Sequence record: LC727697.1
Length of the DNA stretch: 64,000 bases
Origin: Pseudomonas phage sp. 30-2
Strand: one strand, 5' to 3'
Under the pieces are notes generated by a model. It did not search any database and had not been told where the DNA came from. It saw nothing but the letters and a program-made list of their open reading frames with translations. Shown piece by piece: positions 3,726-56,305 of this stretch; position 1 is the stretch's first letter; the number at the start of each line of letters is the position of its first letter. The translations under genes were made by a program, and so were the position numbers.

Positions 3726-5303
3726 TTATATTTTGTTTTCCCACACCCATTTGGTATTACCACAATCATATAGTCGTCTAAATCCACGCTCTTCCATTAT
3801 CTGGTGTTCTGACTTATTTGAATTAAAACCATGTTCTATTAATTTCTTTTTAGTATAATTAGTCCTATGATATACTTTACAAAAATCCGGACTTACATAC
3901 CAATATCCTATGTTTATTTTAGGTTCTTGTTTGAATCCTAATATACGGTAAACATTGCCTGTATTCCATTCATTTTGTGAATATGAAACTATAGAATTAG
4001 GAATATTATTCTTTACAAAATGAGAAAACAATTTAGATGCACCGCCTAGTACTGAACAAGATGTTGCATATCTAAGCAATTCGTAGTCGTATCTGTTATT
4101 TCCCGAAATGTTTCTGTTAGATGATTTTATAAAACTCATTAATGCAACTAATACATCATTAAAATACAATCCGTATTTTATAGATGACGGAACATAACCT
4201 TGTATATGCGTTTTATTCAAAAATTCTTTTTCTTCTGCAGAAGGCACATCTTTAATAATACATTTTCTAGCATATACTGTTTCTTGTATATAGCCTAATT
4301 TATGGAGTAATCTGTTTTCTATTATAGTTTTTTTAGAGTTATACAAATGTCCATATATAGTAATTAACGATATTCCCTTTTCTTTACAACCTATATATTT
4401 GTCATAATGATACGTTTTGGTTATGTGCGGTAAACGATCGTTATCTATTACATGCCAATAAAGTCCATTATATTCTATTGCAAGATTTTTTTCAGGAAGG
4501 TATATATCTAAACTTTTTCCAGAATCTAATATTTTTCTAGATCCAGTTATTATTTCGCCAGAATAATGTTGTCTTATAAAATTAAATAATTCTTGTTCTT
4601 GTGTTGAATTGCATACTGTCAATTCTGGCATACATATTGCACACGTCGGTATACTACTATATCTAACCTTAGACATAAAAGTGTTATTACAAGTTCCACA
4701 TTTTATACAATATGTTTCTGCCATACCTTTATATTCATGTTCTTGTATAGTAAAAGATAAGTTATTTTCTTTTAGTTTTTCCGATATTTTAGAATACCAT
4801 TTATTACCATTAAAATTTTTGTTACCGTATTTTATTGACTTAGTGTGCTTTATCTTAGACGTTACTTTGTCTACATTTTGTTTATTTTCGTAAAATTTTG
4901 CATGATTTTGTAGAGCAATAGCAGATTGCCCGGTATTTGATACTCCGTATTTTTTTAGATTAGTTTTCTCACGCTTTTTCTTTGATATTTCTTTATTTTC
5001 TATCTTTTTTGATTGCACTAAGTTATTAGATACACTTTCTTTACAACACTTGCACGAGGATGCAGTACCACAAAATCTAAACCCATCGTTTATTGAATTA
5101 AATTTTTTTGTGTTTCCGTATTTGCATTCTTCTTTTTCGCCAGTTATAGCAGTATACACTTTAGCAGCATACACAGTATTAGAGGGATTAGTGCAGTGTT
5201 GTTCTACAAATTCTGCTAATTTTAAATCTTTTTTAATCAAAACACTGAAATGCTTTGGTTTACTTTTTATCAATTCTTTTATTTGTATTATTAAGTCTGA
5301 CAT
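3726..5303 (-). CDS. Putative free-standing (homing-type) endonuclease: Cys-rich Zn-finger region plus a DUF559/Vsr-like PD-(D/E)XK core
   Basis: Segment 'LDIYLPEKNLAIEYNGLYWH' fits the DUF559 pattern (aDFy.pe..LaIEvDG..H). Multiple CxxC/CKCC clusters. It has its own sigma70-like promoter and sits downstream of the MCP gene, where T4 carries segD. Confidence 0.5.
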   Translation of the reverse strand: MSDLIIQIKELIKSKPKHFSVLIKKDLKLAEFVEQHCTNPSNTVYAAKVYTAITGEKEECKYGNTKKFNSINDGFRFCGTASSCKCCKESVSNNLVQSKKIENKEISKKKREKTNLKKYGVSNTGQSAIALQNHAKFYENKQNVDKVTSKIKHTKSIKYGNKNFNGNKWYSKISEKLKENNLSFTIQEHEYKGMAETYCIKCGTCNNTFMSKVRYSSIPTCAICMPELTVCNSTQEQELFNFIRQHYSGEIITGSRKILDSGKSLDIYLPEKNLAIEYNGLYWHVIDNDRLPHITKTYHYDKYIGCKEKGISLITIYGHLYNSKKTIIENRLLHKLGYIQETVYARKCIIKDVPSAEEKEFLNKTHIQGYVPSSIKYGLYFNDVLVALMSFIKSSNRNISGNNRYDYELLRYATSCSVLGGASKLFSHFVKNNIPNSIVSYSQNEWNTGNVYRILGFKQEPKINIGYWYVSPDFCKVYHRTNYTKKKLIEHGFNSNKSEHQIMEERGFRRLYDCGNTKWVWENKI

Positions 5304-5421: not shown

Positions 5422-6609
5422 TTAGAAGAATTTAAGAGTGGATGCATCTATAGCAATCGAACTTAGATAGTCAGCACCGTTACCCAGCGAGTTAGCAGTA
5501 TTGGTGAGTTCTAAGTAACCGTATCTGGACATAAATGATACTACAGGCTCGAAAGTAGTAGGATCAATTACCGGACCAGTGCTCATTAACGGAATATACG
5601 GGCAGAAGAATGCAGCAGCATCAGTTTCGGTCGAACCTTTATAACCGATTAAAACTTTTTCATCTTCGGCAGCATAAGTATCTACATAAATGCGCATAGT
5701 TCCGTTTAAGGTACCTGCAAATTTAACGTTAGTAGGCGCTTCAAATACACCTTCAGTAGTACGAGCAAAAGTCGAAGTAGTTGCAGACTGTAGAACAGTT
5801 AGTGCGTTAGGCGAAATAACAGCCCAGTTAGCAGCGCCGCGACGAGTACGAGCAGCAACTAAGTTAGCCTGTTGGTTGATCATTACAGCTAATGCAGCAT
5901 GTTCATCACCAACATAAGTAGCAGTACCAGATACAGCAGCTTGGTTATAAGTTACAGGAGCCGGACCAGCTAAAATACGTAGACGATTTAGCATTTCTTG
6001 GTCGATTTCGACGGTAATTTCTTGAGCTAAAGCTTGCATGATTTCAGCTTCTATATCTATACCGTGAAGAGCGTTAGCATCCTGTGCAGATTCGAAGGTC
6101 CAGCGAGCGCTTAGACGACGAGTACGTGCTTCTACGGTTTCTTTTAGAATTTGAATGTTCATGCGATTACCAGCAAAACCTTCCATACGAGAAGTGTTGG
6201 CAGCGCCTGGAACTGGGTTAGTGCTGTTGTTTAAAGCTTCGTTACCAGAATATGCTTTTGCAATATCGAACGGGCTTAGTGCTTCAGTGCCAGCTTGAAC
6301 ACCAGATGCAGTATCAGCATAACGAACACGTAGGGTATGTATCTGACCTACGGGACCAGTCATAGGCTGTACACCCATAATTTCGTTAGCAATAACGGAA
6401 GGCATAACACGACGGATTAGGGGTAGCATTACTTTGTTGATAGTAGCTATGTTACCGGCTTGAGTAGCACCGGCGGAAGCATTTTCAACTAAGAAACGCT
6501 TAGTGTTTTCCATTACTGCGTCCATGGTCGACTTACGTTGACCTTTTAGACCTTCAGTGAGGGCGCTTTTAGTAGCAGCCCAGTTGCTTTCAAATAGACG
6601 ATTAGACAT
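5422..6609 (-). CDS. 23: Major capsid protein, T4 gp23 family (compact 395-aa form)
   Basis: 'IANEIMGVQPMTGPVGQIHTLRVRY' against T4 'IAFDICGVQPMNSPTGQVFALRAVY', and 'RIYVDTYAAEDEKVLIGYKG' against T4 'RVYIDQYAKQDYFTVGYKG'. Synteny after the scaffold gene. Confidence 0.9.
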   Translation of the reverse strand: MSNRLFESNWAATKSALTEGLKGQRKSTMDAVMENTKRFLVENASAGATQAGNIATINKVMLPLIRRVMPSVIANEIMGVQPMTGPVGQIHTLRVRYADTASGVQAGTEALSPFDIAKAYSGNEALNNSTNPVPGAANTSRMEGFAGNRMNIQILKETVEARTRRLSARWTFESAQDANALHGIDIEAEIMQALAQEITVEIDQEMLNRLRILAGPAPVTYNQAAVSGTATYVGDEHAALAVMINQQANLVAARTRRGAANWAVISPNALTVLQSATTSTFARTTEGVFEAPTNVKFAGTLNGTMRIYVDTYAAEDEKVLIGYKGSTETDAAAFFCPYIPLMSTGPVIDPTTFEPVVSFMSRYGYLELTNTANSLGNGADYLSSIAIDASTLKFF

Positions 6610-34200: not shown

Positions 34201-37200
34201 CACGCGACGAGTATACTAGATATAAAGATAAGTTCATAAAATATGCAAAAGAATTAATAGCAGCGCCTTTAAATCAAAATACAAACCCAGTAAACATAGA
34301 TGCATTGTTTACGTATGTGATAAATCGCGTTACTAGTACGTTCGAATACAATGGTGCCTTCACACAGTCATATATGGCTGCATGGGGTGATGTATACGAT
34401 GAATACAATTTCTCTAGCGCATCGGTAGGAAATACATTATTGGTGCCGACTAATAACATATTAGGTAAAATGGATTCTTCTGTTCTTGTATTTAGAAGAT
34501 CTGGTACTTCTGTTGATTACAATACATTAACAATAGATAAAGACTATACACTATCGTATTCTAATAATAATTTAGTTGTTAAACTGTCTAGCACACTTTC
34601 GAATACGTCGTATATTGTTCGTATATACAATAACATACTTTCTGCAAAAATACCTGCAACACCTTCTAAAATAGGATGTTATCCTGTATATCAACCTAAA
34701 ATAATTGTAGATACTAGTTATGTTACTCCTACAGAAGTAATTTTAGGTCATGATGGTTCTAAAATACCCACCTACGGCGATATTAGGGATGATCTATTAT
34801 TAGAATTCGAAACAAGAATATATAACAATATTGCCGACAAATTTAGACTAGATTACAATTTATTACTTAAATTAGACGATGTAAAACCGACAAAATTTTA
34901 TGAAAACGGGTATACTCTGCAACAATATAATGAAATAGTAAAACCTTATTTCTTAAAATGGTGTTTAAAGAATAGTCTTAATTATAAATTATATTCTGGA
35001 TTTAATTCGTTAAACTGGAAAACCTGGAATTATCGTCCGGTTAGTAACGATTCTATCGGATCTTGGCGCGGATTATACAAATACTACTATAACACACTAA
35101 CACCTAATAAAACACCATGGGAAATGTTAGGGTTTGTAGAAAAGCCGACCTGGTGGGATGAAGAATATAATGGAGATTATACTTCACAAAATACTGATAT
35201 GTGGACTGACATTGAAAACGGTATAATTCGCCGTGGCAATAGAGCAGGCACCCATGAAAAGTATAAAAGGACTGGATTAGTTCCAAATCTAATACCGTCA
35301 GATACTTCTGGTGATTTAAAAACACCAGAGGAGTTAGGTATAGTTCCGCAGCTTTCTAATCAAGAAATAGAAACACTTCAAGACGAATGGATATTCGGGG
35401 ACAATAGTCCTGTAGAAGAAGCATGGTATACTAATTCGGAATGGCCATTTGTTCAGTTAGAATTGTTATATTTAATGAAACCTGCAGATTTCGGAGAAAG
35501 ATACTGGAATCCACTTGACGATACAAGAGCATCCATAAACGCGAAGCAGTATATATCAAGTTCTACGTATACCAGAATTGCTAATAGTAACACATATGCC
35601 CACGGCGAAGTAGTAAATGGAAATATAGTGTTAAACTCTGGATATCAACAATATGTATTTGATAGATTGTCCTTCATGGGTAAACAAGATATTACATACA
35701 ATTTCGGTAGTAAGATACGTTCGTTAGATGTTTGTTTAGCACATAGACTTGCAGGATATACTAATGTAGATACATTGAATGTATATGCCGATAGTATATC
35801 CGGTGGCTCTACTAATTCTAGCATGTTGTTACCTAACGAAAATATACATGTAAGAGTATACACCGGCAAACCTATAACCGAATACGTATTCAGCGGTGTT
35901 GCAATACGTGTAAACGAATATGGTAAATTTGAAGTAAGAGGATATGATGTATTAAATCCTGTATTTAAAGTTGTTCCTAGAAGTACGTTAGTATCTGGAA
36001 CTACAATAAATGTAGGCGGAACAACTTCTAATTTCACAATTTATGACACTAATGTTCAGTACAATTACGGAGATGTAGTTCGATACAATGGAGTCTACTA
36101 TCAATGCGTTGTCATTGCAGCACAAGGAAAATTTAATCAAGATAACTGGATGCGTCTAAAATCGCTTCCTGCAACTGGCGGTATAACAGTAAACTATATT
36201 AATGAAGGTGATTATAGCGAATTCTACGAAATAGAATACGGAAGTGAATTAGATACTCCTCAGGATGTATTTGATTTCCTAATAGGATATGGTCAGTATT
36301 TAGAATTAAACGGATGGAAATTTAACGAAATAGACCAAACTACAGGAGAAGTATTAAATTGGGTTACTTCTGCTAAGGGATTCTTATTCTGGGCAACTAC
36401 TCAATGGGCACCAAATAACACTTTATTCGTCGCACCTGGCGCTTCTAAAATTACATTAGAAGTAAACGAAGGTTATCCTGAGAAGGTAGAAAGAATATCA
36501 AATGGTGTTTATAGTATATTAGATCAAAACGGATATGCCATATCGCCCAATGATACTATTATAGATAGGGACAGAAGAACTATCTCTGTATCTCACGAAA
36601 GCGATCAAATTGGAATATATCTATTCCGTGTTTCTACAAGCGATACAGAACACGCTATATTATTTGATAACAAAACTATATTTAATGATACTATATACGA
36701 TCCGTTACTATACTCTAGGCAAAAAAGACTTCAGTTGCGCGGCATTCGCACAAACGATTGGTACGGTAAATTTGAGGCGGATGGTTATTTAATACAAGAT
36801 GATAATCTATTACAAAACTTTGAAAATTTAACTGATTCGATATGGCATTATTACGATACTGAAAATACATTAGATAATCCTATAATAGAACAAACTGCTA
36901 GACATTTAATAGGATTCCAAGATAGAGAGTATTTAAACAATCTACGTATTACAGGCGATCAGCAATATCTATTCTATAAAGGCATGATTTCTCAGAAAGG
37001 TACAAAGCAGTCTGTAGATAAACTCTTACGATCTGAATTTATTAAAAGTAATGAAAATATTCAGATTTACGAGGAATTTGCATTTAAGTTAGCAGATTTT
37101 GGTGCTACTAATAGTAATGCACAATTAGAAGTATTAATTGACGGCGATTTAGTAAAAAGTGATCCGCAAATAGTAGAATTATCATATCCTGTATCATATG

Positions 37201-40200
37201 GTACAGGTAAAGTTTCTGAAGTTAGAGTATTAAGTTCAGAAATGATTTATACTACTACACCTATAATAGTATTTGCTACACCCGAAGAAGCTAATGCTGG
37301 CTTAGATCCTAATGTAGATGCATATTTGCAAGGCAATCAATTAAATAGCCCCAATAATAGTATTGTAGAGGAAATTAGAGCAACAGGACAGGTTGTATTA
37401 AAAAATGGAAGAATTGATTCTGTTACTATAACTGAACCGGGATACGGTTATATAAAACCTCCCAAAATAGCAATAATTTATAACCAGACTGTCATAACTA
37501 TCGATAAGTTAATTTCTATTATAAAAAATAAAATAGACGAAGATAGTCCATATGATATGATTATTACTATAGATAGCGATGACAACGAGCGTTGGCTATC
37601 TAAACCTAATGGCAGAATGCCAGTAATTGTAGGTAATGAGATTAAGTATAATGATAGATTAGTTCCTACTACAAAACAGCTAGACGGAAATATACCTACA
37701 GCTGGGTATGTAAACACCAAAGATGTTACTCATCAAATACTATATCCTAAAAATATATTTACATTGTGGGAAAGAAAAGATGTTTCTAAACCGAGTCTAA
37801 CTAGTTACATTTGGGTAGGTAATGCCTCGTCAGTAGGTATCGACTGGGGTGTATTTGTTATATACTCTGGACTAACACCTGCTACTAATGCGCTATATCC
37901 GTATTGTGTTATAAACAATATGGTATATTCGTATACTGTAGATTCGGACGGTGTTATAGATGCAATATTTGATAAAGAAGGTAAACAAGTAACTAATGTA
38001 CCTATACAGAATCCTTTATTCTTTAAAAATGTGAGATTTAAAAATAATGCAACTGTTAACGTAACATCAGGTAAAGTATGGATTGATAGTATAAATTCAG
38101 ATAATGACTGGGCTGTTGCTGTTGTTTCCGGATCTACTATAACAAATATTCGTTCTAGACAAAATTTAGTAGATAGTAAATTATTTGAAAATGCATACTT
38201 CTATGATAAAGACACTAAACAAACTATAGATTTTCTACCAGTTTACGATCCAGTTAAAGGATTAATACCCGGAACTGCTGATAGAAACATTCACTATAAA
38301 TCAGAAATAGATCCTACTACATATTCTGTTTCGGCTAATTCTGCAAATATAGACGACGAATTAGCATTTACAGATTCTGAAGTGGGGAGATTATGGTGGG
38401 ATACATCTACTTGCAGGTATTTACAATATGAACAACCCGGAAAACTAGATGGATCTGAAACCAAAGAACAAATTCTAGAATATAGAAGAGATAATTGGGG
38501 TAAACTATTCCCGGGTTCAGTAATAAATGTCTACGAATGGGTTTCAAGTCCGTTTACGCCTGATTTATACAACGGCACTGGCACACCGAAATCGTTAACA
38601 GATTATGTTGTCAGGTATGACACTAATTCTGCAGGCCAAGCAACACCTATATATTATTATTGGGTAAAAGGTAAACAAGAAATACCTAATAATATAAAAA
38701 GTAGAAATATGACTTCTACTAGTGTAGAGAATCTTATAACTAATCCTAAATCACAGGGTTATAAATGGTTCTCGTTTATAGGAAATAATTCGTTTGTATT
38801 TTCTAATGTATCAAAAACTATTAATGGAAAAACACCAGTATTCCAGGTTAATTATAGATACACTAAAAATATAAACGAGAAACATACAGAATGGAAACTA
38901 CTAAGGGAAGGCGACGAAGTTTCGGTTATCCCTACATATCTATGGAATAGATTAGTAGATAGTTTAGTTGGATATAACATAAACGGAGATATAGTTCCTG
39001 ACCCTACGTTGTCTGAATTTAGTAAATTGGGTATAAAAGTAAGACCTAGACAATCTATGATAGATAATAGAATGGCAGCAAGAAAAGTATTTGTTCAAAA
39101 TGCAAACAGTCTTCTGTCTACTATATCTATAAAAGATTTTAATCCTGCATGGGCTGACGGATTAGCGTCTTCTGTTCTTTGGAGATATGTAAACTGGTAT
39201 GCCGACGGATTTAATCAATTTAATACAACACCTGTAAAACAGGTGTCTACTGTAGGTGAATTAACGGGACTTGTAGGAAAACTAAAAGACGGCGATATAG
39301 TTAAATTAGTAAGACCTGAAGAATTTACACTTTATCAATACAGTAATCAAAATTTTACGCTAATTGGACGTCAGAACAGTGCTATTCAGTTGTTGCCTGC
39401 AATCTATACAGTATCTAGATCATATACAAATGATAATGCACTGCGAGAACTAATATTTGCTCTTTATAACAATGTATTTAAAGACGCAAACTTAGTAATG
39501 AGGAACTTAGTGTTCTTTGCGTTAATAAATTATATTTTATCTGAGCAACAAAACTTAGATTGGGTATTCAAGACTACTTATATAAAAGTTAATCAAGAAG
39601 GAGAAAGTTTAACTCAGCAAGAATCGGTTACAACTGATCCTATACAGAGTTTTATTTCTTATATAAAAGAAATTAAACCGTATACTACAAAAATAAGAGA
39701 CTTAGGGGTAAAATATAATGTTCCTATGGATATCGCGAACGGAACAGCGTATGACTATGATTCATTATATGATTGGCCAGACGATCACGAGGGAGAACAA
39801 GCACCATTCCGTCCGATAGAAGTACCCAGATTATTTGATATAAATTCGTTATACGATCGAGTACAATGCGGTTACATAACTAAACCGAATTATATAGACT
39901 TAGGCGACCAAACATTTATCGGTACCGGTGGCCAAGTAGTTCTTATAGCAAATACTCCTAATGATGAATTTATAGCATTAGATGGAATTTCTCAATATCA
40001 ATTAGGTGCTAATAAAGATATTTCTAGAATAACATCTGTAACAATAAATGGGCAAGAAATAGAAGGTTACACATTCACTACAATATTAAATGCAACATTT
40101 ATAATACTTCCTTCTACTCCTGATGCAGGTGATGTAATAATAGTAAACTACACCGATATAAAATCTGTTTGGAAAATTAAGGTAGATGGAAAAACTATTA

Positions 40201-53943: not shown

Positions 53944-54202
53944 TATTGGAAAGATAATGACCAGCTTCTATGTTATATAGTTTCTTTATTAGTTCTGCGT
54001 ATGTCATTATCTTATCCTCAGTAAGATCCAGTGGGATTGGATTACTTACTGTGATGTTCTCGGATGCACTTGGATTCGTCGTGCAGATTGCGGGCTTGTT
54101 CTGCCCAGGGGTGACCTGCAAAACAGAATCCGTGCCATTTGCTGCAAAGCATCCGGCGAAGTAACATGCAACGTTCGTTTTGAAGTCTGGCCAGTGCAGC
54201 AT
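53903..54202 (-). CDS. Hypothetical protein, 99 aa
   Basis: ORF; intermediate GC. Confidence 0.35.
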   Translation of the reverse strand: MLHWPDFKTNVACYFAGCFAANGTDSVLQVTPGQNKPAICTTNPSASENITVSNPIPLDLTEDKIMTYAELIKKLYNIEAGHYLSNNEVKFQNTGKQEN

Positions 54203-54238
54203 TCATGAACTTATCTCCAGGGCGTAGGGTTGTAGAGG

Positions 54239-54439
54239 TTACTCGCTAGCCACAAGCTGCACAAGCTGGCGCTGTGTGCCGTCGGGGCGGTTGCGAACGA
54301 TGCAGAACAGGGTAGCGGTGCGTCCGCAGCTACGATGCAATTCAGCTTCCTGCATCAACCAGCGCACCATGACCGCATTGTAGGCCGGGCGACGGTTTGC
54401 ATCAATTGCAATTTGCTTGACATCTACGATCTGGCTCAT
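54239..54439 (-). CDS. GC-rich island gene A1, 66 aa hypothetical
   Basis: Perfect SD GGAGGG 8 nt upstream; sigma70 promoter module upstream. Confidence 0.55.
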   Translation of the reverse strand: MSQIVDVKQIAIDANRRPAYNAVMVRWLMQEAELHRSCGRTATLFCIVRNRPDGTQRQLVQLVASE

Positions 54440-54478
54440 GGTTGCGCCCTCCGGGGCTTGCTGTGTTGCGTTGTAATT

Positions 54479-54507
54479 ATTATGCGCCCTTCGCTCGGCT
54501 ACGTCAA
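54479..54507 (-). promoter_or_regulatory. Sigma70 promoter module copy 1 (TTGACG-N17-CATAAT), sharing a 5'UTR/SD with copy 2
   Basis: Minus strand: GTTGACGTAGccgagcgaagggcgCATAATAATTACAAC...CCGGAGGGCGCAACCATG. Confidence 0.55.
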
Positions 54508-54580
54508 CTTTTATTTATTGTTCCGCCGGGCGGTCAGCTAGCACCTTCCGGGCAATGTTTGCTCGCGGTGGCCAGTTGAG

Positions 54581-54862
54581 TTATTTCGTACCCTCCATCT
54601 TTGTGCAACTGTGTTTGGAAAAGCCCACGGCGATACCGCTCGTATCGCCAGAGCTACCGAAGTTCCTTGCCCGGATGTTCTTCACAACCGTTTCTCGCTC
54701 ACGCTTGAGCGCCTCGCAGTCTTCCTTGCTAAGGTCACGAACCACAATGGTGTCTGCTGTCGTCGAACGAGCGTAGGTGTTGTTGTTGAAGACAATGGTG
54801 GACAACAAGAGGTAGCTTGCAATGCTCATGGCTGTTCCATAGTCGCGCACTGGCGCAAACAA
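54581..54862 (-). CDS. GC-rich island gene, 93 aa, N-terminal signal-peptide-like (MSIASYLLLSTIVF)
   Basis: GC-rich ORF on the same strand as its neighbours. Confidence 0.4.
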   Translation of the reverse strand: MFAPVRDYGTAMSIASYLLLSTIVFNNNTYARSTTADTIVVRDLSKEDCEALKRERETVVKNIRARNFGSSGDTSGIAVGFSKHSCTKMEGTK

Positions 54863-54906
54863 TGCTTGGAGAGGTGCAGGTTCATCGTGTTATCTCCGGG
54901 GCTATA

Positions 54907-55398
54907 TTACTGAAGGATGAGAATCTTGCGAACGGGGCGGACCAACCAGGCGCTGCTCTTGATAGCGACACTAGCCTCGCCGTCGCCGAAGTGCATGCGG
55001 AAGGCGCCGCATGCGGAGTACTGCGAACTCGACCAGTACCAGCGATCTGCGAAACCAGACAGCTCGCCTGCTTGCTTGGCGGAGAACAGAAGAGCCAGTT
55101 CCAGAACAGAAGGAATGAATACGCCTTCTCCGATCTCCATAGCTTGCTTGGCAATCGGGCTGCCAGCTTCAGCCATGGCGACCGTGTTCGAAGCTCCGTC
55201 TCGGTAGCTGGCGGTGCCGTTCACATCCTGCCCATACTCGCCCCATTCTCCAGTGAACTCGGCGCTTTTGCCGAGATCGACGTAGGCGTATTCCTTGCCA
55301 TTGAGCCATTGGCGGGCAAAGAAGGTTCCATCAGCCAGGGGCTGGCCGATTTCGGGAAGGTCACTCGGATGAATCGAATCGGGGATGGTAGTGCTCAT
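54907..55398 (-). CDS. DUF1566-like (Lcl C-terminal lectin-like) domain protein, 163 aa, GC-rich
   Basis: 'RWYWSSSQYSACGAFRMHFGDGEAS...WLVRPVR' fits the DUF1566 C-terminal pattern (yWSSt....a..v.f..G.......vRcVR). SD AAGGAAA. Confidence 0.5.
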   Translation of the reverse strand: MSTTIPDSIHPSDLPEIGQPLADGTFFARQWLNGKEYAYVDLGKSAEFTGEWGEYGQDVNGTASYRDGASNTVAMAEAGSPIAKQAMEIGEGVFIPSVLELALLFSAKQAGELSGFADRWYWSSSQYSACGAFRMHFGDGEASVAIKSSAWLVRPVRKILILQ

Positions 55399-55431
55399 GG
55401 TTGGTTTCCTTGTCGGGTTGTGCGTGGTGGG

Positions 55432-55641
55432 TTATTGTGCGAACAGGGCGTGCAGGGCGGCTTCTTCGGACTTGCGCATTTCCAGGCACTGGGCATTTGC
55501 AATTGCCAGTTCCAAGGCTTCACACAATTCCCTGGCGTGGGCATGCAACTCGCTAGCGACGCGTCCGGTGTAGCGCAGTTTTTCGAGTTGGTTCATGCGC
55601 ATGCGTTGCGCTACGAGCATGTCTTTCAGTTGTTCGATCAT
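55432..55641 (-). CDS. GC-rich island gene, 69 aa helical protein
   Basis: SD AAGGAAAAG directly after the GC-rich hairpin. Confidence 0.45.
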   Translation of the reverse strand: MIEQLKDMLVAQRMRMNQLEKLRYTGRVASELHAHARELCEALELAIANAQCLEMRKSEEAALHALFAQ

Positions 55642-55657
55642 GATCTTTTCCTTTAGT

Positions 55658-55682
55658 AAAGCCCCGCCTGGGGCGGGGCTTT
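55658..55682. terminator. GC-rich terminator/attenuator hairpin aaaGCCCCGCCtggGGCGGGGCttt
   Basis: 8-bp all-GC stem. Only ~14 nt separate it from the next SD. Confidence 0.55.
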
Positions 55683-55690
55683 AGTTGGTG

Positions 55691-55840
55691 TTAGGCTACG
55701 ATATCATAGCCGAGCCAAACCTGGGTGAGGACTTGGCCATGCCGGAAGATAACTTCGTAGCAGATATCGTTATCACTATCGCTCCAAATCCATGCGTAGG
55801 ACTCGCCGGCTTTGCTGTTCATGCATTGGATGTTGCACAT
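55691..55840 (-). CDS. GC-rich island gene A2, 49 aa (MCNIQCMNSKAGESYAWIWSDSDNDICYEVIFRHGQVLTQVWLGYDIVA)
   Basis: Below the ORF-track cutoff. Identical promoter/5'UTR/SD architecture to gene A1. Confidence 0.45.
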   Translation of the reverse strand: MCNIQCMNSKAGESYAWIWSDSDNDICYEVIFRHGQVLTQVWLGYDIVA

Positions 55841-55889
55841 AGTTTTGCCCTCCTGGGCTGGTTGCGTTGTGTTGCACTGTGTTGTAATT

Positions 55890-55918
55890 ATTATGTGTCC
55901 AATGCTAGTCTACGTCAA
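55890..55918 (-). promoter_or_regulatory. Sigma70 promoter module copy 2 (TTGACG-N17-CATAAT)
   Basis: Minus strand: GTTGACGTAGactagcattggacaCATAATAATTACAAC...CCAGGAGGGCAAAACTATG. Confidence 0.55.
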
Positions 55919-55948
55919 CCTTTTTATCTGCAGGCGAGGCAGAGGATG

Positions 55949-56218
55949 TCAAAACTTGACACCGTGCTCGATATACCACTTAGCGGCATCCTCTGTCACA
56001 AAATCGCAACAGGCCAAAATTGTTTCGACGCTGCGGAGCCAACAATCGACAAAAGCGTCTGTATAACGGTTGGTTCCGTCTTCGTGGACTTTTACCCCGT
56101 CGGTGTGGGCGGCATTGTCCAGAGCTTCAAAATTGACTCGATGAACAATATCCATTGTGCTGCCGAAGACAGCTATAGGGAGGTCTTCGATAAGGCTAAG
56201 CAGACTACGCGCATCCAT
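55949..56218 (-). CDS. GC-rich island gene, 89 aa hypothetical
   Basis: SD AAAGGG; GC-rich. Confidence 0.45.
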   Translation of the reverse strand: MDARSLLSLIEDLPIAVFGSTMDIVHRVNFEALDNAAHTDGVKVHEDGTNRYTDAFVDCWLRSVETILACCDFVTEDAAKWYIEHGVKF

Positions 56219-56305
56219 CCCTTTGTACTCCGTATGTTCTGTATGTATACAGTATGCATCCAGTGAGTACCTTTGTCTACCAAAATATGAAAATTAATAT
56301 GCTTA

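Follow-up and report, generated by a model that had tools for sequence, protein, structure and literature searches.

A GC-rich island, probably an accessory cassette array, with a putative orphan target of a diversity-generating retroelement in the early region of a PA5oct-like Pseudomonas jumbo phage

The 64,000-nucleotide (nt) stretch of Pseudomonas phage sp. 30-2 analyzed here (record LC727697.1; hereafter, the window) comes from a PA5oct-like jumbo phage of Pseudomonas aeruginosa, which belongs to the genus Wroclawvirus of the family Arenbergviridae. A GC-rich island of seven small open reading frames (ORFs) in this window is probably a horizontally acquired and still-turning-over accessory cassette array, similar to morons or hyperplastic regions, in the early terminal-repeat arm of the genome. 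Judged from sequence comparison, its genes and at least one complete module of promoter, leader, and Shine–Dalgarno sequence (SD) derive from high-GC P. aeruginosa phages of several types, namely Iggy/PaP002 siphoviruses, D3/Haboob temperate phages, and H66-, KPP23-, and PS24/PAK_P3-type phages. Cassettes have evidently been gained, lost, or swapped among sister jumbo genomes between conserved AT-rich flanks. One of the genes, which encodes a DUF1566-like protein of 163 amino acids (aa), appears to be an orphan target of a diversity-generating retroelement (DGR) with a variable region (VR), a feature that was overlooked in the preliminary description of this DNA.

Location, composition, and origin of the island

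Over 24 kb, the window is 97.6% identical to phage Ettore and 96.7% identical to phage PA5oct. The counterpart of the island in PA5oct lies at 36,253-38,436, just within the direct terminal repeat of 39,080 bp, at its inner end. PA5oct reportedly has no RNA polymerase (RNAP) of its own, is rifampicin-sensitive, and uses the host RNAP; it has 32 promoters of the TTGAC/TATAATA type, and most of gp34-gp105 in the terminal repeat show high early transcription (PMC7318152). All seven island ORFs are on the minus strand and are co-directional with the AT-rich early genes on either side. No tRNAs were found in the window.

54042-56218, minus strand: whole GC-rich island, with seven ORFs, two promoter modules, and one hairpin

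The limits of the island were refined to position 54042, the stop of a 54-aa ORF, and position 56218, the start of an 89-aa ORF. The mean GC content of the window is 34%; in 1-kb bins, the values for 54001-56000 are 0.536 and 0.541, with 0.25-0.34 in the neighboring bins, and in 100-nt windows the GC content goes up at approximately 54040 and down at approximately 56240. The preliminary description had given 58-60% GC for the island; its GC richness was confirmed, but the mean is 0.53 (vs. approximately 0.32 in the flanks), and such values are reached only at local peaks of 0.58-0.63. The GC content at third codon positions (GC3) is 0.51-0.66 in the island ORFs versus 0.17-0.37 in the flanking ORFs.

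Matches to six of the seven island genes were obtained in different high-GC Pseudomonas phages, with segment-wise identities of 79-95% to the putative donors. When 24 kb of the early arm were searched by megablast, only 54.0-56.2 kb matched sequences beyond the genus, and these matches stop at 54050 and 56203. The GC content of the individual island genes (0.49-0.58) is near that of their homologues in other phages (0.50-0.62), and the same is seen gene by gene (e.g., 0.567 vs. 0.577 and 0.580 vs. 0.578). Because this composition is donor-like, transfer most probably went into the jumbo phage, not out of it. The reverse direction, in which genes native to the jumbo lineage were donated to smaller Pseudomonas phages, is very unlikely: the presence of the island throughout the relatives described below does speak for its age within the genus, but its composition is foreign to a 34% GC genome, the relatives of each gene occur in a different phage lineage with its own synteny, and DGR machinery was found on the temperate-phage side only. 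Mild drift toward AT at the island edges points the same way. At the sites where the 54-aa ORF differs from that of PaP002, 21 are A/T here and G/C in PaP002, and 4 are the other way; this asymmetry is weak overall, is clear only at the edges, and does not date the transfer.

Direct capture from a non-phage part of the P. aeruginosa chromosome, with the similarity to phages being secondary, is scarcely more than conceivable. The GC content of the host is high (66%; PMC7318152) and the DUF1566-like gene is abundant in P. aeruginosa assemblies, but all homologues identified are carried by phages, in early or immunity regions of their genomes, and the GC content of the island genes fits that of the phage homologues, not 0.66. 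Moreover, members of the family with chromosomal copies also occur in temperate phages and are linked to DGR/cI contexts, and the promoter module matches early promoters of Iggy-type phages. The earlier proposal of a horizontally acquired island of high-GC origin thus holds, given its foreign composition and its matches in high-GC phages; the source, described then as a high-GC organism, is better given as a pool of other P. aeruginosa phages and prophages.

Nine relatives (10 records) were compared, namely PA5oct, MIJ3, Deifobo, Ettore, Paride, Cassandra, 30-3, Callisto, and PAC2; their recorded isolation countries include Switzerland, Japan, Thailand, and Spain (at least four). Each of these nine independently sequenced genomes has a GC-rich island at this locus, and the AT-rich flanks around it are the same as in the window. 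An assembly chimera or a contamination from a co-cultured high-GC phage, which the abrupt GC change at both edges might suggest, is therefore excluded for practical purposes; in addition, the junctions lie at ORF boundaries, and the arrangement of the island occurs in no single donor genome. It had been reasoned beforehand that a syntenic island of ordinary AT-rich composition in the relatives would betray a chimera, but the compared genomes are GC-rich at this locus and give no sign of one. The comparison across relatives that the preliminary description had asked for also corrects its view of a recent acquisition: with the island in 9/9 relatives, the acquisition is not very recent, though single cassettes keep turning over and the cassette content varies.

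A portable promoter module

The module that precedes two of the island ORFs is composed of the following elements.

55841-55930, minus strand: promoter module 2, with an A-rich upstream tract, a -35 element TTGACG at 55913-55918, and a -10 element CATAAT at 55890-55895
Leader and SD of module 2, minus strand: CA-rich leader of 49 nt with (A/G)CAAC repeats; SD AGGAGGG at 55848-55854
54440-54520, minus strand: promoter module 1, with an A-rich tract, a -35 element TTGACG at 54502-54507, and a -10 element CATAAT at 54479-54484
Leader and SD of module 1, minus strand: CA-rich leader of 39 nt; SD GGAGGG at 54447-54452

The pattern TTGACGTAG-N14-CATAATAATTACAAC occurs at exactly two places in the 64 kb, both on the minus strand (54470-54507 and 55881-55918), and had 0 matches in 100 shuffles. 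The two copies form a 46-nt direct repeat with 80% identity, and each scores 10/12 as a sigma70 site with a 17-nt spacer (TTGACG-N17-CATAAT). The 66-aa and 49-aa ORFs that follow them gave no BLASTP alignment with each other. The duplicated sigma70 promoter, 5' untranslated region, and SD ahead of unrelated ORFs had been recognized in the preliminary description, and both points stand.

In phages Iggy and HTN2, the homologue of the 66-aa ORF lies behind an A-rich tract, GTTGACG, a spacer of 17-18 nt, GCATAAT, a CA-rich leader, GGAGGGC, and the ATG, and the leader reads ...ACAAC(A/G)CA(A/G)C...AGCCCNGGAGGGC... before the ATG. Positions 54519-54215 of the window align to Iggy 2398-2699 with 86% identity, such that promoter, leader, and 66-aa ORF are covered as a single piece. 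These alignments indicate that the TTGACG-N17-CATAAT module originated in Iggy-type siphoviruses as their native early promoter and reached the jumbo phage together with the 66-aa ORF, which would also explain the host-style appearance of the predicted promoter. The homologue of the 49-aa ORF in Iggy and HTN2 has an SD box only, without a promoter, and the second promoter copy ahead of the 49-aa ORF appears to have been placed there in the jumbo phage.

A total of 21 module copies were aligned: module 1 of the window and eight relatives, module 2 of the window and nine relatives, and the copies of Iggy and HTN2. GTTGACG, CATAAT, and the ATG are invariant in this alignment and the GGAGGGC SD is nearly so, with the spacer and leader variable, which is the pattern expected of a functional promoter and ribosome-binding site. 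Deifobo, Callisto, and Cassandra have a distinct, HTN2-like allele of module 1 with an 18-nt spacer, which suggests more than one exchange with Iggy-type phages. Module 2 is kept in 9/9 relatives, ahead of the 49-aa ORF in seven and of a 101-aa ORF in Paride and PAC2, and the first ORFs that follow this module across the relatives are of at least three unrelated kinds. It therefore appears to act as a portable expression cassette, in agreement with the shuttling cassette envisaged earlier, and a third copy is found in Paride. The module in its exact form is confined to Wroclawviruses among GenBank phages, and the exact pattern had 0 matches in IMG/VR viral contigs.

The leaders (55841-55889 and 54440-54478) consist largely of (A/G)CAAC pentamers. 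The copy number of the pentamers differs between isolates, which suggests slippage; the leader of module 2, for example, is approximately 20 nt shorter in PA5oct and MIJ3 than in the window. These repeats may serve as an unstructured CA-rich translation enhancer. An Hfq/Crc motif (AAnAAnAA) was also considered for the CAAC repeats, but a by-eye check gave no fit.

The 163-aa gene as a putative orphan DGR target

The features of the DUF1566-like gene are as follows.

54907-55398, minus strand: gene for a 163-aa DUF1566/Lcl_C-like protein, homologue of D3 orf68 and of the first target of the Haboob and phPA-G DGRs
54927-55024, minus strand: VR block, homologous to the template repeat (TR) of Haboob/phPA-G and diversified at approximately 54949-55011
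54909-54942, minus strand: sequence resembling an initiation of mutagenic homing (IMH) site, GTCCGCCCCGTTCGCAAGATTCTCATCCTTCAGT, whose core is found once in the window

Relatives of the gene with 86-93% DNA identity occur in Haboob, D14O, D3, PMG1, FBPa42, and other phages. The match of the window protein to Pfam Lcl_C/DUF1566 (E value, 1.7e-4; 22.3 bits) is below the cut-off of 34.9 bits, and the same match, to residues 95-157, was found in 56/56 sampled homologues. The DUF1566 lectin-like class given in the preliminary description is thus putative. The only PDB entry with sequence similarity to the family is 8q4e (HbP1, 165 aa; E value, 0.012); the match covers the same residues 95-157, and both proteins end in VRxVR.

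Nine jumbo phage alleles (the window and eight relatives) and seven temperate-phage alleles were aligned. Residues 1-128 and the last approximately 12 residues (RVRPVRKILILQ) are conserved across these 16 alleles, and the approximately 24 residues between them are hypervariable. Haboob (OR683404, 11500-16200) and phPA-G (PP083311, 17600-21200) are D3-like temperate phages with a complete DGR, which comprises two tandem targets of the DUF1566 class, Avd, a 98-nt AAC-rich TR, and a reverse transcriptase (RT). The gene order in Haboob is the VR1 target, a second target (VR2), a "four helix bundle protein" (Avd), the TR, and an RNA-directed DNA polymerase. The Haboob Avd matches NCBIfam DivGenRetAVD NF033474 (E value, 1e-14), its RT is homologous to brt of Bordetella phage BPP-1 (E value, 2e-30), and a three-way repeat links VR1, VR2, and the TR between Avd and RT. 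Avd and RT are annotated in phPA-G as well, and its TR is 100% identical to that of Haboob, although one isolate is Danish and the other Portuguese. The targets of these DGRs are near the immunity/early region and not in the tail module, and a spurious minus-strand ORF is annotated across the TR in the Haboob record.

The VRs of the jumbo phages differ from this TR mainly at adenines. The TR block of 98 nt contains 32 A and 66 non-A positions, and the mismatches at the two classes were compared by Fisher test, with all p <= 1.4e-4. Mismatches (A/non-A) were 20/13 in the window (20 of 32 A vs. 13 of 66 non-A; p = 4e-5) and 20/13 in MIJ3, 15/1 in PA5oct (p = 4e-8), 16/5 in Ettore, 14/5 in Callisto, 14/6 in 30-3, 17/8 in Cassandra, and 20/11 each in Deifobo and Paride. 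The values for the smaller phages were 13/0 for Haboob VR1, 17/0 for Haboob VR2, 14/0 for D14O, 17/0 for FBPa42, and 15/0 for phPA-G. The jumbo genomes contain at least four VR types. The IMH that closes the VR on its 3' side reads GTCCGCCCCGT(C/T)CGCAAGATTCTCATCCTTCAGT and is unlike the corresponding sequence of the TR (IMH*), which reads ...CGCAGAATCAGGTGTTGCG; the jumbo IMH is identical to that of Haboob VR1 through the stop codon, with the window one base off. No GC-rich inverted repeat follows the IMH (DNA fold, -1.8 kcal/mol; z, +2.4); such a repeat is present in only 34% of DGRs (PMC5758913). A DGR survey lists DUF1566/CLec2 as a target class, and it does not expect remote targets for phage-borne DGRs, since they are not inherited with the phage (PMC5758913). 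An alternative TR that would account for the non-A mismatches of the window was sought in phPA-G, U9, and D14O, and none was found.

A combination of TR, Avd, and RT was not found in the jumbo phage itself. In five Wroclawvirus genomes among the matches listed, a query of Haboob avd and TR matched at the VR only, with avd unmatched; no Wroclawvirus was among the RT matches listed, and all seven Pseudomonas matches there are plausibly from non-jumbo phages. For these reasons, the jumbo phage appears to carry an orphan target rather than a DGR. The TR query also matched one place only in D3, PMG1, and FBPa42, which thus carry orphan targets too. U9 has two VR-like copies, one of them under a coding sequence annotated on the minus strand, and no TR in the 7.5 kb examined.

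All nine jumbo genomes with the 163-aa ORF have it intact, and non-synonymous changes are not in excess outside the VR; the protein is probably functional. The VR of D3 orf68, the first annotated ORF downstream of cI, has a 2-nt frameshifting deletion, and PMG1 has the same VR without the frameshift. We infer that the DUF1566-like protein is a variable, ligand-binding member of the early cargo set.

Origin of the VR diversity

Recombination with alleles of temperate phages or prophages is the favored route by which VR diversity would have entered the jumbo phages. Jumbo and temperate alleles show 0 fixed differences and 37 shared polymorphisms. In the part outside the VR, the jumbo alleles are 90.6-97.5% identical to one another and 91-95% identical to those of D14O and Haboob, and they are paraphyletic in a neighbor-joining tree; the adjacent 69-aa gene, by comparison, is 96-100% identical among these genomes. 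Many differences among the 163-aa alleles are synonymous. P. aeruginosa genomes hold more than 200 clusters (90% identity) of the 162-163-aa protein, and recombination partners should therefore be common in infected cells. Most jumbo VRs also differ from the TR at non-adenine positions, a sign that they decayed once imported.

A second route deserves consideration, in which the VR is mutated in trans, via its intact IMH, by the Avd, RT, and TR of a resident prophage of the Haboob/phPA-G type. A lytic phage without an RT would then keep an early, IMH-bearing target that is hypermutated by resident prophage DGRs, i.e., inter-genome mutagenic retrohoming. In favor of this route, the jumbo IMH matches that of Haboob VR1 (one base off in the window) rather than the IMH* of the TR, the independent phages Haboob and phPA-G share an identical TR, genes homologous to the target abound in P. 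aeruginosa, and Avd, TR, and RT are known to act in trans from a plasmid (PMC5758913). The VR of PA5oct is near-pristine, with 15 A mismatches and one non-A mismatch, and its backbone outside the VR is closest to that of Ettore (95.9%), whose VR is completely different; FBPa42 shows its 17/0 pattern without a TR. However, the 5-13 non-A mismatches of most jumbo VRs point to sequences that were inherited and are decaying, not refreshed. Among isolates of one VR type, differences are found at non-A sites and outside the VR, as recombination and point mutation would produce, and the polymorphisms shared upstream of the VR show that recombination occurs. Efficient homing in the Bordetella and Legionella systems depends on the inverted repeat that is missing after the IMH here (PMC5758913). 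Diversification in trans is thus rather unlikely. If true, it would account for at least four adenine-specific VR variants among ten genomes and would equip a lytic phage that has no reverse transcriptase gene with a hypervariable early protein.

Cassette turnover among relatives

The flanks of the island are conserved up to position 54070 and from position 56168 of the window, and the content between them varies by relative. The segment 54573-54892, which holds the 93-aa ORF, is missing in 30-3, Callisto, and Cassandra. Only Paride and PAC2 carry the 101-aa ORF (METIGQI...), directly behind module 2. Paride has a third, diverged copy of promoter and leader between the 101-aa and 49-aa ORFs (GTTGCAT-N17-TATACT ...ACACAACGAAACAGACCCGGAGGGCAAAACTATG), such that module copies stand on both sides of the inserted 101-aa ORF and both ORFs have a promoter to themselves. 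The 101-aa ORF (minus strand; 4098-4403 and 5451-5756 in the extracted PAC2/Paride loci) gave a weak Pfam match to Gp22 (PF21567; E value, 0.002), below the cut-off. The island of PAC2 is only 1.1 kb long and carries cargo with matches in PAK_P3/P3_CHA and PS24 and to the first early ORF of PaP002.

The 54-aa ORF alleles of Callisto and Cassandra are only 76-79% identical to that of the window, with flanks at approximately 97%, which looks like a second allele replacement in the island besides that of the DUF1566-like gene.

Other island genes and their predicted role

The remaining genes and the hairpin are listed from the upstream end of the minus strand.

55949-56218, minus strand: 89-aa ORF; homologue KPP23 ORF055, 79% DNA identity
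55691-55840, minus strand: 49-aa ORF; homologues Iggy QEA09803 and HTN2 XDG30452, 81% DNA identity
55657-55683, minus strand: GC-rich hairpin with a 12-bp stem and 3-nt loop; -24 kcal/mol, z -4.1
55432-55641, minus strand: 69-aa ORF, predicted to be helical; homologue H66 gp30, 82% DNA identity
54581-54862, minus strand: 93-aa ORF (82 aa when read from its ATG at 54829), hydrophobic toward the N-terminus; candidate for the signal-peptide protein of the preliminary description
54239-54439, minus strand: 66-aa ORF; DNA identity of 94.5% to Iggy, 93% to PaP002, and 88% to HTN2
54042-54206, minus strand: 54-aa ORF, PHROG 9686; 72-84% DNA identity to PaP002, Iggy, PS24, Itty13, and EM

In Iggy and HTN2, the promoter described above is followed first by the homologue of the 66-aa ORF, which is the second gene in PaP002. 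The Iggy operon has the order promoter, 66-aa homologue, ..., 49-aa homologue, and 54-aa homologue, and the 66-aa and 54-aa ORFs are adjacent in PaP002; in both Iggy and PaP002, these genes stand at the start of an operon of small ORFs that is located close to a genome end and is preceded by this promoter. The family of the 54-aa ORF is widespread in P. aeruginosa phages, with pPA-3099 as a further member. The 69-aa ORF is 96-100% identical among the jumbo genomes, and its homologue H66 gp30 lies in the early region, downstream of the H66 repressor-like regulator gene. The 89-aa ORF has shrunk to a remnant of 35-45 aa in Paride and PAC2.

The hairpin stands directly before the SD of the 69-aa ORF (AAGGA-N-ATG), with only UUU after its stem. 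A GC-rich terminator that abuts the next SD had been proposed here; the strong hairpin and its position agree with this, but the tract of three U does not, and the element is possibly a weak terminator or an RNA-stabilizing element. Upstream of the 93-aa ORF, a micro-ORF of 19 aa (MNLHLSKHCLRQCATMEQP) at 54827-54887 (minus strand) has its own GGAG SD and shares an ATGA overlap with the ATG of the 82-aa form, which may allow translational coupling.

In the phages to which they are native, the homologues are located early or close to the immunity genes, and the cargo therefore most likely comprises early proteins that the phage can do without and that would serve in host takeover, in competition between phages, or in counter-defense. 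A toxin-antitoxin-like pair or an anti-phage defense module was among the functions proposed in the preliminary description, and small adjacent ORFs with their own promoters would be compatible with such a pair. This function is now highly improbable, as the small ORFs had no matches to toxin-antitoxin, defense, or other families in Pfam, NCBIfam, PADLOC, or PDB, and adjacent toxin and antitoxin genes of recognized families were not found. Furthermore, the ORFs are not kept as pairs, and the cassettes assort independently among relatives and donors. The BLAST and profile searches recommended there thus yielded phage homologues for 6/7 ORFs, but no family that gives a function. PHROGs returned matches only to "unknown function" families, and PDB sequence searches with the 163-, 66-, 69-, and 89-aa proteins gave nothing significant.

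Proposed course of events

The accessory-array reading favored here would work as follows. The sigma70-RNAP of the host would read the imported TTGACG-N17-CATAAT promoters within minutes of infection, beside the early promoters of the phage itself, and the unstructured CA-rich leaders and strong GGAGGG SDs would lead to high translation of the small proteins. These proteins may act in host takeover or in contests with other phages or with host defenses. New cargo and new alleles would enter by recombination with co-infecting phages or resident prophages, with crossovers in the repeated promoter, leader, and SD sequence and in intragenic homology. VR types would be generated by the DGRs of temperate phages, imported by recombination, and then subjected to ordinary mutational decay.

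Several observations weigh against this account. No function was obtained from the databases named above for any cargo protein. The AlphaFold2 model of the 163-aa protein had a predicted local distance difference test score of 50.6 and is unusable, with an input alignment of 56 homologues at 80-89% identity that is too shallow; the C-type-lectin fold is thus only putative. The absence of RT from the jumbo genomes is read from the matches listed and the absence of avd and TR, not from a complete six-frame scan. Generic sigma70-like matches in the region are not above chance (40 found vs. 41.6 expected), and the putative promoter function is therefore argued from conservation and not from a match to the consensus. 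The 93-aa and 101-aa ORFs are without an identified donor: the former had no homologue outside the genus, and the latter no DNA-level match in the phage database. Finally, the breakpoints are not all at the module, as the indel of the 93-aa ORF (54573-54892) lies at gene boundaries, and recombination mediated by the module is apparent for the Paride/PAC2 events only.

Comparison with known systems

By its sequence features, the island joins known kinds, as a moron/hyperplastic-region cassette array that carries an orphan DGR target. Morons have a foreign GC content and their own promoter and spread horizontally (Juhala/Hendrix concept; reviewed in PMC3594210). The island resembles them in its horizontal acquisition, in a composition (GC and GC3) unlike that of the surrounding genes, in its own predicted promoters, and in non-essential cargo, with whole cassettes missing in sister genomes; extra DNA relative to close relatives is seen at the cassette level, with the island as a whole in all of them. 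The sequence shows two conserved promoters of the sigma70 type, and a single convincing hairpin, with a short stretch of U and no proper U-tract, belongs to one of the cassettes. Classic morons, however, are single units in temperate phages that are expressed from the repressed prophage and benefit the lysogen, whereas the island is a multi-cassette array in the early region of a strictly lytic jumbo phage, within and co-directional with an early operon, and its donors are other phages of the same host. In this respect, the likeness is an analogy only.

The promoter(early)-stem-loop (PeSL) elements of T4-type phages (PMC2839356, PMC4122927) provide a second parallel. Repeated sigma70-like early promoter cassettes stand before small non-essential ORFs in both cases, with strong sigma70-like promoters at two sites in the window and three in Paride. 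Some of the insertions or replacements lie beside the repeats, as for the Paride/PAC2 insertion, where promoter and leader copies flank the 101-aa ORF of Paride; the indel of the 93-aa ORF is not bounded by repeats. Unlike PeSLs, the promoter copies of the island have no attached stem-loop terminator (upstream folds with z of -1.5 and -0.8, no better than shuffles), they number two to three at one locus instead of dozens genome-wide, and the module is foreign (Iggy-type, GC-rich) and not native to the genome. The T4-type definition (PMC2839356) thus appears to apply only in part.

The 163-aa gene can be compared with DGRs of the Legionella LdtA type (PMC5758913) and of Bordetella phage BPP-1. 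The likeness consists of a VR at the C-terminus of a small DUF1566-like protein, adenine-specific differences from an AAC-rich TR, a GC-rich IMH followed by sequence unlike the IMH* of the TR, and cognate Haboob/phPA-G cassettes in the canonical order of target(s), Avd, TR, and RT. In contrast, the jumbo phage has the target alone, with no matching TR or Avd and no RT detected, and this target is on a separate lytic phage, where the survey expects no remote targets for phage-borne DGRs (PMC5758913). It is also a 163-aa protein of the early/immunity region and not a tail fiber, no inverted repeat follows its IMH, and most jumbo VRs have decayed after diversification. Compared with D3 orf68 and its homologues in Detrevirus, the gene belongs to the same family at the DNA identity given above, but the D3 gene lies in a temperate genome of matching GC content and has a frameshifted VR, whereas the jumbo ORF is intact and lies in a foreign compositional background.

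Other GC-rich islets in the window

Two further GC-rich islets were examined as possible imports and rejected, since they had no homologues outside the genus even at the protein level; the 54-56 kb island is special in this regard. The islet at 57961-58620 (GC 0.53) contains a 145-aa ORF (58066-58503, minus strand) that is conserved in all Wroclawviruses and was located by tblastn at three places per genome, i.e., it has paralogues; it had no homologue in other phages (tblastn) and no Pfam match, and the opposite strand is annotated in some records. The islet at 63221-63940 (GC 0.51) contains ORFs of 100 aa (63344-63646) and 82 aa (63658-63906), both on the minus strand, which are genus-restricted at 96-100% identity and had no family matches. 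A neighboring ORF of 162 aa (57421-57909, minus strand) gave a sub-threshold match to Pfam Pyr_excise (E value, 3.7e-4; 21.2 bits vs. a cut-off of 23), a pyrimidine dimer DNA glycosylase of the T4 endonuclease V type, and its relatives are labeled "DNA binding protein" or "putative endonuclease V."

Implications for Pseudomonas phages

A GC island with a duplicated promoter would in itself be of modest interest, to which the apparent orphan DGR target on a lytic jumbo phage adds. The island offers a clean case in which a jumbo phage has taken up genes, together with their regulatory DNA, from small Pseudomonas phages, both temperate and virulent, whose base composition is very unlike its own, and it shows how repertoires of early genes are assembled. 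The D3/Haboob-type P. aeruginosa phages carry a previously unannotated DGR family, for which no published account was found in a literature search. Orphan copies of the target on a lytic phage are an arrangement that the DGR survey did not expect for phage-borne DGRs (PMC5758913), and the multi-allelic orphan target makes DGR action across co-resident genomes directly testable. In candidates for phage therapy (PA5oct, Paride, Callisto, and PAC2), the locus constitutes a 2-kb landing pad whose content differs by isolate and may influence host range or performance on lysogens.

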